A stretch of 64,000 nucleotides of DNA from Escherichia coli (GTDB lineage: Bacteria > Pseudomonadota > Gammaproteobacteria > Enterobacterales > Enterobacteriaceae), in assembly GCF_022846255.1 (NCBI RefSeq), contig NZ_AP025682.1. One strand, written 5' to 3'. Under the pieces are notes generated by a model. That model had not been told where the DNA came from, did not search any database, and saw nothing but the letters and a program-made list of their open reading frames with translations. This document shows, piece by piece, positions 8,052-14,328 of the stretch. Position numbers and translations under genes: made by a program. Position 1 is the stretch's first letter; each line of letters opens with the position of its first letter.

Positions 8052-9191
8052 TTAGTACAGAGAGTGGGTGTTACGTTCAATATCTTCTTTGGTGATACGA
8101 CCGAACATTTTCCAGTAACACCAGGCGGTGTAGAGCAGAATGATCGGTACCAGAACCACCGCAACCCAGGTCATGACGTTAAGCGTCAGCTGGCTGGAAG
8201 TTGCATCCCACATTGTCAGACTTGCGTTCATCATGGTGCTGGACGGCATCACAAACGGGAACATTGCGATACCGGCAGTCAGGATGATGCAGGCCAGCGT
8301 CAGGGAGGAGAACACAAACGCCCACGCGGCTTTATCCATACGTGCAGTCAGGATGGTCAGCAGCGGCAGAACCACACCCAGTGCCGGAATAGCCCACAGA
8401 ATTGGCGTGTTGTTGAAGTTAACCAGCCATGCGCCAGCTTCACGAACCACTTCTTTATTCAGCGGGTTAGAGGCTGCGTAATGGTCCATTGTCGATTTCA
8501 CGACATAACCATCGATACCGTACATCACCCATACGCCAGCCAGTGCGAAGCAGACCAGCGTCACCAGTGCCGCCACCTGAGCCGTTGCACGGGTACGCAG
8601 GTGCAGTTCGCCCACGGTACGCATTTGCAGATAGGTTGCGCCCTGAGTAATGATCATCCCTACGCTCACCACACCTGCCAGCAGGCCGAACGGGTTAAGC
8701 AGCTGGAAGAAGTTACCGGTGTAGTACAGACGCAGATATTCATCAACGTTGAATGGTACGCCCTGCAACAGGTTACCGAACGCTACACCAATCACCAGCG
8801 GCGGAACGAAGCTACCAATGAAGATGCCCCAGTCCCACATGTTACGCCAGCGGGTTTCTTCAATCTTGGAGCGGTAATCAAAACCGACCGGACGGAAGAA
8901 CAAAGACGCCAGCACGAGGATCATCGCCACATAGAAGCCGGAGAACGCAGCGGCATAGACCATCGGCCAGGCAGCAAACAGTGCGCCGCCTGCGGTGATC
9001 AGCCAAACCTGGTTACCGTCCCAGTGTGGTGCGATGGAGTTAATCATAATTCGACGCTCGGTGTCGTTACGACCGAGGAAACGGGTGAGCATGCCCACCC
9101 CCATGTCGAAACCGTCAGTGACTGCAAAACCAATCAGCAGAACGCCAACCAGCAGCCACCAGATAAAACGCAATACTTCATAATCGATCAT
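8052..9191 (-). CDS. cydB: Cytochrome bd-I ubiquinol oxidase subunit II
   Basis: 379-aa polytopic membrane ORF. Confidence 0.95.
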   Translation of the reverse strand: MIDYEVLRFIWWLLVGVLLIGFAVTDGFDMGVGMLTRFLGRNDTERRIMINSIAPHWDGNQVWLITAGGALFAAWPMVYAAAFSGFYVAMILVLASLFFRPVGFDYRSKIEETRWRNMWDWGIFIGSFVPPLVIGVAFGNLLQGVPFNVDEYLRLYYTGNFFQLLNPFGLLAGVVSVGMIITQGATYLQMRTVGELHLRTRATAQVAALVTLVCFALAGVWVMYGIDGYVVKSTMDHYAASNPLNKEVVREAGAWLVNFNNTPILWAIPALGVVLPLLTILTARMDKAAWAFVFSSLTLACIILTAGIAMFPFVMPSSTMMNASLTMWDATSSQLTLNVMTWVAVVLVPIILLYTAWCYWKMFGRITKEDIERNTHSLY

Positions 9192-9206: not shown

Positions 9207-10775
9207 TTAGCGTGCCGGCTGAGTAGTCGTGGAAGACTGCTCAAAGTGATAGCGACCGGTTTTCAGGCTGCTTGGGCCGAGGCGTGCAAACTTGAACATT
9301 AAGAACAATTCTGCCACCAGGAACAGGGTATACAGGCCGCAAATCAGCACCATTGAGAAGATGAGATCGCCTGCGGTCAGTGACGAGTTCGCCACAGCTG
9401 TCGGCAGCACTTCACCGATAGCCCACGGTTGGCGGCCATATTCAGCCACGAACCAGCCCGCTTCTACAGCAATCCACGGCAGCGGAATACCGTACAGCGC
9501 GGCGCGCAGCAGCCATTTTTTCTCGCCAATGCGGTTGCGGATGACACTCCAGAAAGAGAGCGCAATGATTGCCAGCAGCAGGAAGCCACACGCCACCATG
9601 ATACGGAACGCGAAGTACAGCGGCGCTACACGCGGAATGGAGTCTTTGGTTGCCTGTTGAATCTGAGCTTCAGTCGCATCAGCCACGTTTGGCGTATAGC
9701 GTTTCAGCAGCAGACCGTAACCGAGATCTTTCTTCATGCTATTGAACTGGTCACGAACGGCCTGGTCGGTAGAACCAGAACGCAGTTGTTCGAGCAGAGA
9801 GTACGCCTTCATCCCGTTACGAATGCGTTCTTCATGCTGCACCATCAGTTCTTTCAGGCCGATAACTGGAGTATCCACGGAACGCGTTGCAATGATGCCC
9901 AGCGCGTAAGGGATCTGGATCGCAAATTTGTTCGTCTCCTCTTCCTGATCAGGAATGCCGAACAGAGTAAAGGCAGCAGGTGCAGGTTGCGTTTCCCACT
10001 CGGCTTCGATAGCAGCCAGTTTGGTTTTCTGCACGTCGCCCATTTCGTAACCGGATTCATCACCCAGAACAATAACAGACAGAACGGCAGCCATACCGAA
10101 GCTGGCAGCGATAGCAAAGGAGCGTTTAGCGAAGGCGAAGTCACGACCTTTCAGCATATACCATGCGCTGATACCGAGGATGAACATCGCGCCAGTCACA
10201 TAACCAGAAGCTACGGTGTGAACGAATTTCACCTGAGCAACCGGGTTAAGCACCAGCTCGGAGAAGCTCACCATCTCCATACGCATAGTTTCAAAGTTGA
10301 AATCGGACGCGATTGGGTTTTGCATCCAGCCGTTTGCAACCAGAATCCACAGTGCGGACAGGTTTGAACCGAGCGCCACCAGCCAGGTGACACACATATG
10401 CTGAACTTTACCCAGACGATCCCAACCGAAGAAGAACAGACCTACAAAGGTGGATTCGAGGAAGAAGGCCATCAGACCTTCGATTGCCAGCGGCGCACCG
10501 AAGATATCCCCTACATAGTGGGAATAGTAAGACCAGTTAGTCCCGAACTGGAACTCCATGGTCAGACCGGTAGCCACACCCAGAGCAAAGTTGATACCAA
10601 ACAACTTGCCCCAGAACTTGGTCATATCTTTATAAATCTGTTTGCCGGAAAGGACGTAGACCGTTTCCATAATGGCCAGCAGGAACGCCATACCGAGCGT
10701 CAGTGGCACAAAAAGGAAGTGGTACATCGCGGTCAAGGCAAACTGTAAGCGCGACAGTTCGACTATATCTAACAT
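9207..10775 (-). CDS. cydA: Cytochrome bd-I ubiquinol oxidase subunit I
   Basis: Translation [20 protein letters not shown]...; start taken at second Met of track ORF (522 aa). Confidence 0.95.
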
Positions 10776-11450
10776 CATGACTCCTTGCTCATCGCATGAA
10801 GACTCCGAGAGTGAACCCCGTTAGAAAGGGTCACACGCATGCCCCAATACAAAATTATTTGCTCGCCTCTATCGTTGCCATTTCATCAAAAGAGGAAAAG
10901 ACAATGATAAAAAAGTTACAAATGTGTTAATGAATAAACCAAATTGATCCCGTAATTATATTACGCCGCAAAATCCTTACAATAAACAGGTTTTTATTGA
11001 GCAAATTTGCATTTTTCGACAGTGATCAATTTATAGCGAAATTGTCACGATCTCACCAATTTGATCTACAACAATTTATCGTGTTTTGCAGATTTTTTTC
11101 AAGAATTAAAAATTGATTTATATCAAAATCAACCACATATGTTAATTATGTGTGAATCATGAGCCACTGGTAACTTTATTGTTAATTTATTGTAACAAAA
11201 CAGCACGGTAAATTACCCACATGGAAATATATAGATAAAAAACCAGTATTTTATTTAACAAAGCCGCTTTATCGACTTTTTATAATACTAATTAGTTAGA
11301 GTAGCTACTTTATTGCCATTTTACATAACATATTTTTATCAACGTTAATTGATTGTTGTCTTTATGAGCAACGTACTGTAAATCCGTCACTTATTGTTTC
11401 ATTGGTAATAATCACAAGAAGAAATAGATACCTTAGGTATAGTCAGATGG
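10776..11450. promoter_or_regulatory. AT-rich region upstream of cydA; probably includes the cydAB promoter/regulatory region, extent uncertain
   Basis: Non-coding AT-rich DNA immediately 5' of cydA; cydAB is known to have a long complex upstream control region. Confidence 0.4.
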
Positions 11451-12103
11451 AACAAGGATTTTTAAAATAAAATATATATGGTATTAATATTTCCCGATCT
11501 GTATTCAATGATTCGCTCAAAGATTGAAAATCAAGAGAAATTGTTATAGCAGTGATACGAAACAACAAAACGGAATGATTGCCAGCCGTTAGAAAACACC
11601 GGACACTCTCGTGTAAAAAGCTACCCTGTCTATGGATATAGCGATATCCACTCATCAAGCGTGGACTGAATGATATTCAGCTCCATATGGGCGGAAACCT
11701 GGAGGATAAATACGATTTCGCCGTTGGAATCAAGGTTGTTCTGCAATATCTACCAGACTGCTTCAATTTATCTGTTTTGGCAGTGCAATAATCTTAATTT
11801 AACTATTTGAAGATGATGATATTGTCAGATGCCAGAAATTTAGTAATCTGGAGAACCGTGTCTATGATCACTAAATATTAAAGTAATAGTCGATAATTCA
11901 GTAGCACATCGGGTAATATAACGTATTGATACATAATCATATTAAAAAATTCGTGATTAAATAACATAAGAATATGTTTTATTATCATTAAAAAACCTTC
12001 TATTTCCATCATCCTTAAGATAATAAAACAGCGAATGATGGATAACTTGACCAGAAAAACAAGCAAGCATATAAAATTAAAAAATATGATTCCACTTTCA
12101 TTT

Positions 12104-13219
12104 TTATAAAATGGCATCGTGAAGAGCGAGTTGATAATGCTGCAATGCATCAGCGTCCTGTCCAGCAGTTTCATAAATTTTGGCAATGTTATAATAGGAG
12201 TTAGCGCGCGTTGTCGCCGCATTTACCCCACTCGCTAACGAGATCGCTTTACGATTTGCCCAAATTGCTTCCGCTATGTTGCCATTTTTCTGATACGCCA
12301 GACCCAGGTTACTAAATGCCTGTCCGTAATTGCCGTCTAATTCTGTTGCCTGTTGGAAGAGTTGAATGGCTTGCTCAAGTTGACCGGTTTTATAAACAGC
12401 TTCACCTTCGCGATTATATTTTCTTGCCAGTTGAGTATCTCCACTGTTTTGCATCGCAGGCGAAGCCGGAGCTGAAGAGTCCGTCGCAGGCATTATCACA
12501 GTGGCTAAATCCCTGACGTCTAATGTGGTGTCGTTAAAATTGGCGCTGGTAACAGAGTTGATATCTTCAAACTCGCCGTTTGGATTGAGTTTAAACACGG
12601 TCCAGATGTTCCCTCGTTTTCCAGCAGGGACACTATAACTACGTACCAGGGAGCTCCCTACATAAACAAACACTCTTGCCTTACTGGCAGAGAGATAATT
12701 ACTGTTGGGCAACCCTTTATTGCTATAGTCCTGCACGGCATAGATGTAACTTTCACCAAAATGCTTTTTGCTGATAGTGACAGTTTCTGGTCCATAGCTA
12801 TCCGTATCATCAACATCCAGATTGGCATCAGTTCCCTCTTTACTATCAAAATAGATATGTCCGCCAGGGAAGATCAAATGCGAATCAAGATCAAAAGGCT
12901 TTTCGCCCCAGCTCAAAACTACACGCATGCCATCCAGATTCGTCATCACCGGACTGATAGCATAAGTCATGCCAGCGCACGGACATTTGACCACCAGATT
13001 GGAATACCCCTCTTTTTTGACGATTAATAGAGCATCTTTATTATCAGCAAATGAAGTCCCCAAACTAATGCTGCCCGAAGTATTTGTGGTTCCAGAAACA
13101 GATTGTGCGCCATTGCGTTGCAGCGTCATCGATGCTCCTTCAATGCGTTTATCTTTCACTGTCGCACTTAAAATATCGATATTTACATCGGCCGCATAAA
13201 CGTCCGAATTTATACCCAT
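12104..13219 (-). CDS. Hypothetical protein, probably exported: N-terminal beta-rich region (PEGA/carboxypeptidase-regulatory-like, then a region with DLDSHL and LDVDDTDSYGPE motifs), low-complexity linker, C-terminal TPR repeats. Possible N-terminal extension to 13267 with no canonical start
   Basis: 371-aa ORF in track; TPR-like helical repeats near C-terminus (AFSNLGLAYQKNGNIAEAI..., YYNIAKIYETAGQDADAL); in-frame upstream codons encode a signal-peptide-like KKKIVLPVALALMGINSDVYA-ADV. Confidence 0.7.
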   Translation of the reverse strand: MGINSDVYAADVNIDILSATVKDKRIEGASMTLQRNGAQSVSGTTNTSGSISLGTSFADNKDALLIVKKEGYSNLVVKCPCAGMTYAISPVMTNLDGMRVVLSWGEKPFDLDSHLIFPGGHIYFDSKEGTDANLDVDDTDSYGPETVTISKKHFGESYIYAVQDYSNKGLPNSNYLSASKARVFVYVGSSLVRSYSVPAGKRGNIWTVFKLNPNGEFEDINSVTSANFNDTTLDVRDLATVIMPATDSSAPASPAMQNSGDTQLARKYNREGEAVYKTGQLEQAIQLFQQATELDGNYGQAFSNLGLAYQKNGNIAEAIWANRKAISLASGVNAATTRANSYYNIAKIYETAGQDADALQHYQLALHDAIL

Positions 13220-13357
13220 CAGGGCCAGAGCAACCGGCAGAACAATTTTCTTCTTGTATAAATGCTTTTACAGAACGGAGAGGGGATATTTTGCCGGGCA
13301 TTATTGCGCAGAAGATGGGAAAAAAGCAGTGGGCAAACTTTTCAGATTAGTGCCCGA

Positions 13358-13458
13358 ATAAAAAAGGCCATCATAAGATGGCCAACCATGTCGAAACCGA
13401 CAGCCCTTCGCCCCTCCTGTAGAGGGAAGCGGCGAGGGCTATTTCTTATTACAGATAT
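13358..13458 (-). ncRNA. sdhX: sucD 3'-UTR, expected position of the 3'-UTR-derived sRNA SdhX (RybD), ending at the sucD terminator
   Basis: Region directly 3' of sucD stop on minus strand, ending in hairpin ggccatc-ataa-gatggcc plus U-run (13358-13383); SdhX is known to derive from the sucD 3'-UTR. The sRNA sequence itself was not checked from memory. Confidence 0.55.
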
Positions 13459-14328
13459 TTATTTCAGAACAGTTTTCAGTGCTTCACCGATATCCGCCAG
13501 GCTGCGAACGGTTTTCACGCCTGCGGCTTCCAGAGCAGCGAATTTCTCATCCGCAGTCCCTTTACCACCGGCAATGATCGCACCTGCGTGACCCATACGT
13601 TTGCCTTTCGGCGCAGTCACACCAGCGATGTAACCCACAACTGGCTTGGTAACGTGCTCCTTGATGTACGCCGCTGCTTCTTCTTCAGCGCTACCGCCGA
13701 TCTCACCGATCATCACGATCGCTTCGGTCTGCGGATCTTTTTCGAACATTTCGAGGATGTCGATAAAGTTAGAACCAGGGATCGGGTCGCCGCCGATACC
13801 GACACAGGTCGACTGACCGAAACCGTAATCCGTGGTCTGTTTAACCGCTTCATAGGTCAGCGTACCGGAACGGGAAACGATACCCACTTTACCCGGTTTG
13901 TGAATGTGACCCGGCTGGATACCGATTTTGCATTCCCCCGGGGTGATAACGCCTGGGCAGTTCGGGCCGATCATACGAACGCCTGCTTCATCCAGTTTCA
14001 CTTTCACCGTCAGCATATCCAGCGTCGGGATGCCTTCAGTGATGGTGATAATCAGTTTGATGCCTGCATCGATAGCTTCCAGAATGGAGTCTTTGCAGAA
14101 CGGTGCTGGTACGTAGATAACAGAGGCGGTAGCGCCAGTAGCAGCAACAGCTTCACGCACGGTGTTGAACACCGGCAGGCCGAGGTGGGTAGTACCGCCT
14201 TTACCTGGGGTTACGCCGCCAACCATTTTAGTGCCGTATGCAATGGCCTGCTCTGAGTGGAAAGTCCCCTGGCTACCGGTAAAGCCCTGGCAGATAACCT
14301 TGGTGTTTTTATCAATTAAAATGGACAT
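13459..14328 (-). CDS. sucD: Succinyl-CoA synthetase alpha subunit
   Basis: 289-aa [48 protein letters not shown]. Confidence 0.95.

Follow-up and report, generated by a model that had tools for sequence, protein, structure and literature searches.

Organization and Distribution of the Locus

The window analyzed, a stretch of 64,000 nucleotides from Escherichia coli (contig NZ_AP025682.1), carries in reverse orientation the segment of the chromosome that comprises cydB–cydA, an AT-rich spacer, a gene for a TPR-repeat protein and sucD–sucC. The features are listed below.

8052–9191, minus strand: cydB (ORF listing)
9207–10778, minus strand: cydA (ORF listing)
10779–12103, strand not given: AT-rich spacer between the truncated TPR gene and cydA, about 31% GC, 1.3 kb
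11878–12222, minus strand: 114-codon ORF, ATG start, 114 aa (ORF listing)
12104–13219, minus strand: annotated CDS of the TPR-repeat protein, 371 aa
13459–14328, minus strand: sucD (ORF listing), with sucC beyond it

The TPR locus is carried by about 1105–1112 of 5426 complete E. coli genomes. Its closest match is E. coli strain 2A, at 98.9% over 10700–13500 and 100% over the 114-codon ORF. K-12 and other non-carriers have only the approximately 380 bp adjoining cydA in common with the window. These cydA-proximal bases are conserved as far as Enterobacter, and the spacer outside them is specific to TPR-carrying E. coli. Blastn against plasmids and phages revealed no mobile-element relatives of the spacer, the three matches labeled as plasmids being multi-Mb or 730-kb E. 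coli records that match only 250 bp at 80%. A repeat search gave only short chance matches, and the Rfam scan of both strands of 10600–13600, sucD 3′ UTR included, gave no match at E ≤ 1. A literature search on the locus gave no result. PGAP annotates the TPR protein alone here, and the 114-codon ORF was not annotated in any complete genome inspected. A second ORF in the middle of the spacer (11443–11658, 71 aa) was considered as a gene remnant and rejected, as its variants were 0 synonymous and 10 non-synonymous, with 3 to stop.

The 114-Codon ORF and Its Predicted Product

The ORF lies where the first-pass annotation had placed it, and its reported overlap with the last ~40 codons of the TPR gene was found to be 119 nt, with the ORF in the +1 frame relative to that gene. 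The overlap was thus described correctly, but what had been taken for the 3′ end of the TPR gene is itself an end truncated by a deletion. The internal methionine noted near 12117 is M36. On the upstream side of the deletion junction, residues 1–33 come from the +1 frame of the TPR gene; beyond it, residues 34–114 are encoded by what in undeleted strains is AT-rich spacer downstream of that gene. Strings resembling a Shine–Dalgarno (SD) sequence are found 4 nt before the ATG at 12222 (GGGG) and 5 nt before the ATG at 12150 (AGGA), both weak and both within TPR coding sequence, while nothing SD-like precedes the ATG at 12117. The ORF is present as a single copy per genome.

The product is Ile/Leu/Phe-rich, as originally described, with a GRAVY of 0.91. 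The two transmembrane-like stretches also reported are roughly right: there is one strong hydrophobic block at about residues 40–74, with a Kyte–Doolittle (KD) 19-mer maximum of 2.72, and a second, weaker one that reaches about residue 81 and beyond and is broken by R, E, K and H. The product is hydrophobic because the open stretch is T-rich at second codon positions (55% T), and a transmembrane-like 19-mer (KD ≥ 1.6) is present in 78% of composition-matched random open frames. The first-pass attribution of the hydrophobicity to T-rich composition therefore holds. Compared with such random frames, the GRAVY was 1.22 against 0.78 ± 0.35, which is 1.3 sd above the mean, and the hydrophobic peak fell within their upper 5%, a point against a chance origin. 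Alone, the above-average peak and GRAVY are suggestive of nothing.

Length was evaluated with dinucleotide-preserving shuffles of 10779–12222 (2000 trials), taking the longest ATG-initiated ORF in each. An ORF of at least 114 aa appeared in 31 of the 2000 shuffles (1.6%), the mean longest being 63 aa and the 95th percentile 95 aa. The argument that such ORFs arise easily in this context through a scarcity of stop codons was wrong, since AT-rich DNA is rich in stops and 114 codons are uncommon for it; the other two frames of the ORF strand have 13 and 5 stops. The spacer part of the ORF, however, accounts for 82 codons in the window and for 89 codons stop-to-stop in undeleted strains, and an open stretch of 80–90 codons is ordinary, inside the shuffle range. 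The excess length arises because the deletion joined this stretch to an alternative TPR frame. The window also contains non-genic antisense ORFs opposite cydB, cydA, sucC and sucD (426, 312, 243 and 222 aa), so ORF length alone carries little weight.

Deletion Junction and Ancestral Form

Alignment with the long-form E. coli strains THO-015, ST131 strain 4433 and TUM13770 showed 260 extra bp in these strains at window position 12126.

12125–12126, strand not given: junction of the 260-bp deletion relative to long-form E. coli (alignment; position ambiguous by a few bases)

The DNA missing from the window comprises the last 21 TPR codons (…HYQLA-YTEKNKPSYEEAIARVKTKM-stop), the stop codon, a terminator-like GC-rich hairpin of 9 bp (−22.4 kcal/mol, z = −5.3) and about 170 bp of spacer. 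In the long form, this segment is enclosed by two copies of the 6-bp direct repeat CTGGCG, and the event was possibly a microhomology deletion between them. The long-form TPR gene encodes 397 aa, ending in …HYQLAYTEKNKPSYEEAIARVKTKM-stop, and its homologues in Pseudocitrobacter, Enterobacter, Pectobacterium, Nitrosomonadales, Cellvibrio, Bacteroidota and Helicobacter align up to residue 396 of 397. The Pseudocitrobacter homologue (76% identity) has the same C-terminal motif, …AEKNKPTYEEAIARVKAK…. Since the outgroup C-termini reach this residue, the long form is ancestral, and both the deletion and its polarity are shown by these alignments. In the long form, the ATG of the ORF gives 48 aa, and the hydrophobic part is a separate 79-aa ORF starting with TTG. 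The ORF therefore spans a derived junction and has no single frame in the ancestral arrangement.

The TPR CDS of the window is shortened at both ends compared with the ancestral 397 aa. At the C-terminus, the tail LHDAIL replaces the lost 21 aa, and at the N-terminus the start codon has been changed.

13253–13255, minus strand: former TPR start codon, now AAG (ATG in long-form strains)

The codons of the signal peptide, KKKIVLPVALAL, are still in frame without a canonical start and thus untranslated, so that the only possible start of TPR translation in the window is a Met within this former signal peptide. Some lineages have an additional internal stop or frameshift in this gene. A plain pseudogene was nevertheless not established, as pN/pS is still 0.27 within the short-form strains, that is, those with the deletion. 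A scan for a terminator downstream of the truncated TPR gene on the minus strand found none. Promoter-like hexamers number 14 on both strands against 8.9 ± 3.0 expected, a mild excess typical of AT-rich DNA. All short-form strains also lack mngR-mngA-mngB, and the TPR gene consequently follows the sucD 3′ UTR directly in them.

Fate of the Frame among E. coli Strains

In 14 lineage representatives, the products translated from the homologous ATG differ greatly in length, as listed.

114 aa: 2A, 85.0412, UTI89, Z0117EC0117 and SSGw1 (5/14)
94 aa: H22 and E7 (2/14)
93 aa: JA0266 (1/14)
88 aa: Z1323HEC0475 and GPEC1042 (2/14)
48 aa: THO-015, ST131 4433 and TUM13770, all long form (3/14)
39 aa: GF130 (1/14)

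All three sites of small indels inside the ORF are homopolymer runs of T5–T7.

12079–12084, minus strand: T6 run (A6 on the plus strand), being T6, T7 or TTTTTA depending on the strain
11990–11995, minus strand: T6 run, T7 in Z1323HEC0475, with a frameshift to 88 aa
11944–11949, minus strand: T6 run, T5 in H22, E7 and GPEC1042, T7 in GF130 and JA0266

At the last of these runs, T5 results in 94 aa in H22 and E7, and T7 in 93 aa in JA0266. In GPEC1042, a T7 at the first run already shifts the frame, and together with the T5 at 11944–11949 gives 88 aa. In GF130, an extra base at the deletion junction does so, and together with the T7 gives 39 aa. The core of the ORF is gone from E. coli E69, and in the long-form strain TUM13770 a 2-bp deletion in a T run shifts even the 79-aa piece. 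Frame-disrupting indels in otherwise conserved orthologous DNA, which the first-pass annotation had named as the observation that would refute a gene, are thus present, the orthologues being otherwise 92–99% identical.

The frequency of these forms was estimated from 60 of the 1105 carrier genomes, evenly spaced. More than half (31/60) were not short form; these were 29 long forms, a further long form shorter by 2 bp and a partial match. The short form was found without a net indel in 20 genomes and with a net ±1 indel in 9, which is 15% of the sample and about 30% of the short-form strains. The net ±1 classes were sampled up to four times, from unrelated sources, and this recurrence means that they are not assembly noise. 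Some homopolymer differences seen in a single genome could be assembly errors; the recurrent classes cannot. As a point against a chance reading, about one third of carriers keep the frame intact, those of UTI89 type and ATCC 25922 type included.

Substitution Pattern

Substitutions were analyzed in 15 alleles by pN/pS and by the codon position of variable sites. The TPR gene behaves as a coding sequence, with a pN/pS of 0.26 and 22/20/42 variable sites at first, second and third codon positions, an excess at the third. Beyond the TPR stop, the ORF has a pN/pS of 0.89 (0.94 from the junction) and 13/12/8 variable sites, and its frame is indistinguishable from the other two by substitution pattern. 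The comparison of synonymous and non-synonymous changes proposed at first pass therefore gave no coding signature, with no third-position excess. In the overlap (12125–12222), pN/pS is 0.34 in the TPR frame against 1.05 in the ORF frame, on small counts, with 7 of 13 changes at the TPR third position. Comparisons among short-form strains alone, and of the window with the long form, gave the same picture. Coding constraint was sought even in the in-frame alleles and was not seen in their substitution patterns.

Variation in the locus peaks in the ORF segment, at 14% variable columns against 5–8% elsewhere, and nearly all small indels of the locus fall there. Stop-creating substitutions in the sampled alleles number 0 in the ORF frame and 1–2 in each of the other frames, all small counts.

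Homologue Searches and Comparison with Known Small Genes

The ORF product had no match in Pfam or NCBIfam, and phmmer against 1.84 billion representative proteins found no homologue beyond E. coli ORF calls. One weak, repetitive phmmer match at 26% identity was regarded as low-complexity noise. Tblastn of the C-terminal 79 aa in 31 outgroup loci gave no match either, and the only thing in these loci that matches the ORF is the alternative-frame shadow of the conserved TPR gene. In protein collections, a word-indexed search retrieved 22 clusters, all from E. coli only, of 63–145 aa and inconsistent in length. Several are chimeras that switch into the other frame (MLACFSGQVIHHSLFYYLKDDGNRRF…), and one frameshifted form occurs on 69 contigs.

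The closest resemblance is to chance ORFs in AT-rich intergenic DNA acquired horizontally and to chimeric ORFs at the deletion scars of decaying genes. With these the ORF shares the lineage-specific junction, the lack of in-frame constraint, the homopolymer indels, the absence of homologues, the hydrophobicity from T-rich codons and the fact that PGAP ignores it. It differs from them in exceeding the length expected from composition and in being intact in a sizeable minority of strains.

Like genes overprinted on the same strand, the ORF reads part of an annotated CDS (the 119 nt at its 3′ end) in a second frame. Unlike them, its variation in the overlap respects only the TPR frame, and the overlap exists only through the TPR stop moved by the deletion. 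Among validated E. coli small membrane proteins, CydX (37 aa) is encoded a few kb away in the cyd operon, and the ORF resembles it in being hydrophobic and near the cyd locus. The cydX gene was called with the same accession, WP_000270282.1, in both genomes where the region was inspected, and it is broadly conserved across Enterobacterales with its frame preserved. In contrast, the ORF is found only in E. coli, is variable and is often frameshifted.

Origin of the ORF and Alternative Explanations

These results agree with the first-pass judgment that the ORF is most likely spurious, which is supported by the frame-disrupting indels and the non-coding substitution pattern. The ORF is very probably a fortuitous, non-coding chimeric frame across a deletion scar in a decaying locus. 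The ancestral arrangement is a gene for a 397-aa secreted TPR protein followed by the hairpin and then by AT-rich spacer with a chance open stretch of about 89 codons. In the window lineage, the 260-bp deletion took the end of this gene (21 codons and the stop) together with the hairpin and some 170 bp of spacer, joining the +1 frame of the TPR gene, with its ATG at 12222, to the open stretch and so creating the 114-codon ORF. The frame is not maintained, and slippage in the T5–T7 runs, further deletions and substitutions change it freely in close relatives. We infer that no protein is made or needed.

A function of the DNA itself, with the ORF incidental, is an unlikely alternative. The segment could be a distal, H-NS-bound or regulatory part of the region upstream of cydAB, or the 3′ UTR of a read-through TPR transcript. 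Its low GC content (31%) and excess of promoter-like hexamers are in keeping with this, as is its position upstream of cydA, whose proximal ~380 bp are conserved as far as Enterobacter; H-NS prefers AT-rich DNA as its substrate (PMC3923964). However, the ORF segment lies 1.1–1.4 kb from cydA, and no other part of the locus is as variable or as prone to indels. The segment is also missing from about 80% of E. coli genomes, which have no island, and partly deleted in E69.

It is quite improbable that the ORF is a young, lineage-specific small membrane protein gene born de novo, in which a hydrophobic frame acquired its ATG and upstream sequence through the deletion and which is expressed where the frame is kept and dispensable in other strains. 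The intact frame in about one third of carriers, a length unusual for the composition, the SD-like strings before two ATGs and the sporadic calls of a hypothetical protein by gene callers would all fit such a gene. TPR transcripts could also run through it, since the TPR hairpin is deleted and no terminator-like site was found downstream. Against this, purifying selection is absent, frameshifts recur and are common among carriers, E69 has lost the core, no homologues were found, and the upstream TPR gene has lost its own original start codon, which makes translational coupling or strong transcription doubtful. In its most specific version, the deletion gave birth to a strain-restricted membrane protein made by TPR read-through in UTI89, ATCC 25922 and 2A (B2-type) and silenced by slippage elsewhere, and the chance of this is slimmer still.

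A type I toxin-like hydrophobic peptide, for instance the 79 aa from Met36 at 12117, silenced by an antisense RNA, is barely credible. As in Hok, Ldr, Ibs, TisB and ShoB, the predicted product is hydrophobic with a transmembrane-like segment and comes from an intergenic region, here an AT-rich one; both strands have promoter-like hexamers, but only in the mild excess given above. A type I toxin would be expected to have under about 60 aa and a single transmembrane helix. The product here, at 114 or 79 aa, is longer than known type I toxins, two to four times longer than those named, and has its hydrophobic residues 40–81 interrupted by charges. The ATG at 12117 has no SD sequence, no antitoxin or other RNA family was matched in Rfam at E ≤ 1, there is one copy per genome and no homologue, and the frame is not conserved, with a C-terminus completely different between haplotypes.

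A phase-variable (contingency) gene, in which the T5–T7 runs switch a small membrane protein on and off, is likewise exceedingly unlikely: all three in-ORF indel sites are homopolymeric and ±1 variants recur in several lineages, but runs of 5–7 nt are short for efficient slippage, as known contingency tracts usually have at least 8 nt, the variants are not scattered but fixed in classes of lineages, coding constraint is lacking even in in-frame alleles, and the fused ORF is missing from half of the carriers.

The residual probability of a de novo membrane protein, a toxin-like peptide or a phase-variable gene draws on the intact third of carriers and the weak SD-like strings.

Implications

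The ORF is best left unannotated, as PGAP does in complete genomes, and has no importance as a gene candidate. The public records that describe it as a hypothetical protein (the 22 clusters of inconsistent length) are best seen as over-calls. Its modest value is as a worked example: two open stretches fused by a deletion can yield an ORF that is statistically long given its composition and yet artefactual, and frame checks at the population level settle such cases quickly. For E. coli, the locus shows that a TPR protein gene of horizontal distribution is still decaying at the variable sucD–cydA junction.

Start codon and export of the TPR protein

The window and every short-form strain, that is, those sharing the 260-bp deletion, have AAG in place of the ATG with which the TPR gene ancestrally began (13219-13260, minus strand). 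The signal-peptide codons KKKIVLPVALAL are still in frame in this segment. Since the first canonical start left to the gene is a Met within what used to be its signal peptide, the 371-aa protein as annotated is probably not exportable. Despite the ATG to AAG change, the gene shows a pN/pS of 0.27 within the short-form strains.

Other alleles of the locus

Escherichia coli E69 (CP089930.1, 1486-3891) carries a third allele, resembling the long form. Its TPR gene has an internal deletion, and another deletion of about 170-180 bp takes out the core of the hydrophobic ORF that spans the short-form deletion junction. In E. coli GF130 (locus L008, 1600-2742), the deletion junction contains one additional base, which shifts the TPR frame and therefore accounts for the 380-aa protein called by PGAP, the tail of which includes a few codons in the frame of the hydrophobic ORF.

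Conserved middle of the AT-rich spacer

The lowest variability of the locus was found at 11279-11778, in the middle of the spacer between the TPR gene and cydA, with 3-5 variable columns per 100 nt, below that of the TPR gene itself. A 71-aa ORF in this segment (11443-11658, minus strand) was considered as a coding sequence and ruled out, with 0 synonymous vs. 10 non-synonymous variants, 3 of the latter creating stop codons; it is clearly non-coding.

Gene content between sucD and cydA

Segment 13220-13458 of the window is without mngR-mngA-mngB, genes that K-12 carries in its sucD-cydA interval and that adjoin the TPR gene in long-form strains. It contains the following feature:

within 13220-13458, about 105 nt: sucD 3' UTR, ending in a hairpin terminator at 13366-13383 (minus strand)

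We take the RNA of this 3' UTR to be, probably, the SdhX/RybD sRNA; Rfam gave no match for it. A similar hairpin is found in long-form strains upstream of the TPR gene and downstream of mngB.

The sequence upstream of cydA in E. coli O169:H41 F6326-C1 (locus L003, 3717-6717), representing another group of E. coli, diverges beyond about 640 bp. Past this point lie two genes for hypothetical proteins, along with glmS and glmL of a methylaspartate mutase cluster. Because this group has other genes upstream of cydA, the sucD-cydA interval is a hotspot for varying gene content.

Family and distribution of the TPR protein

The first ~250 residues (12400-13219, minus strand) gave no match in Pfam, NCBIfam or PDB sequences. 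Full-length homologues with 40-76% identity were found in Enterobacterales, Nitrosomonadales, Cellvibrio, Bacteroidota, Helicobacter and Sulfuricurvum (loci L016-L045). This is an uncharacterised secreted TPR protein with a scattered, HGT-like distribution.
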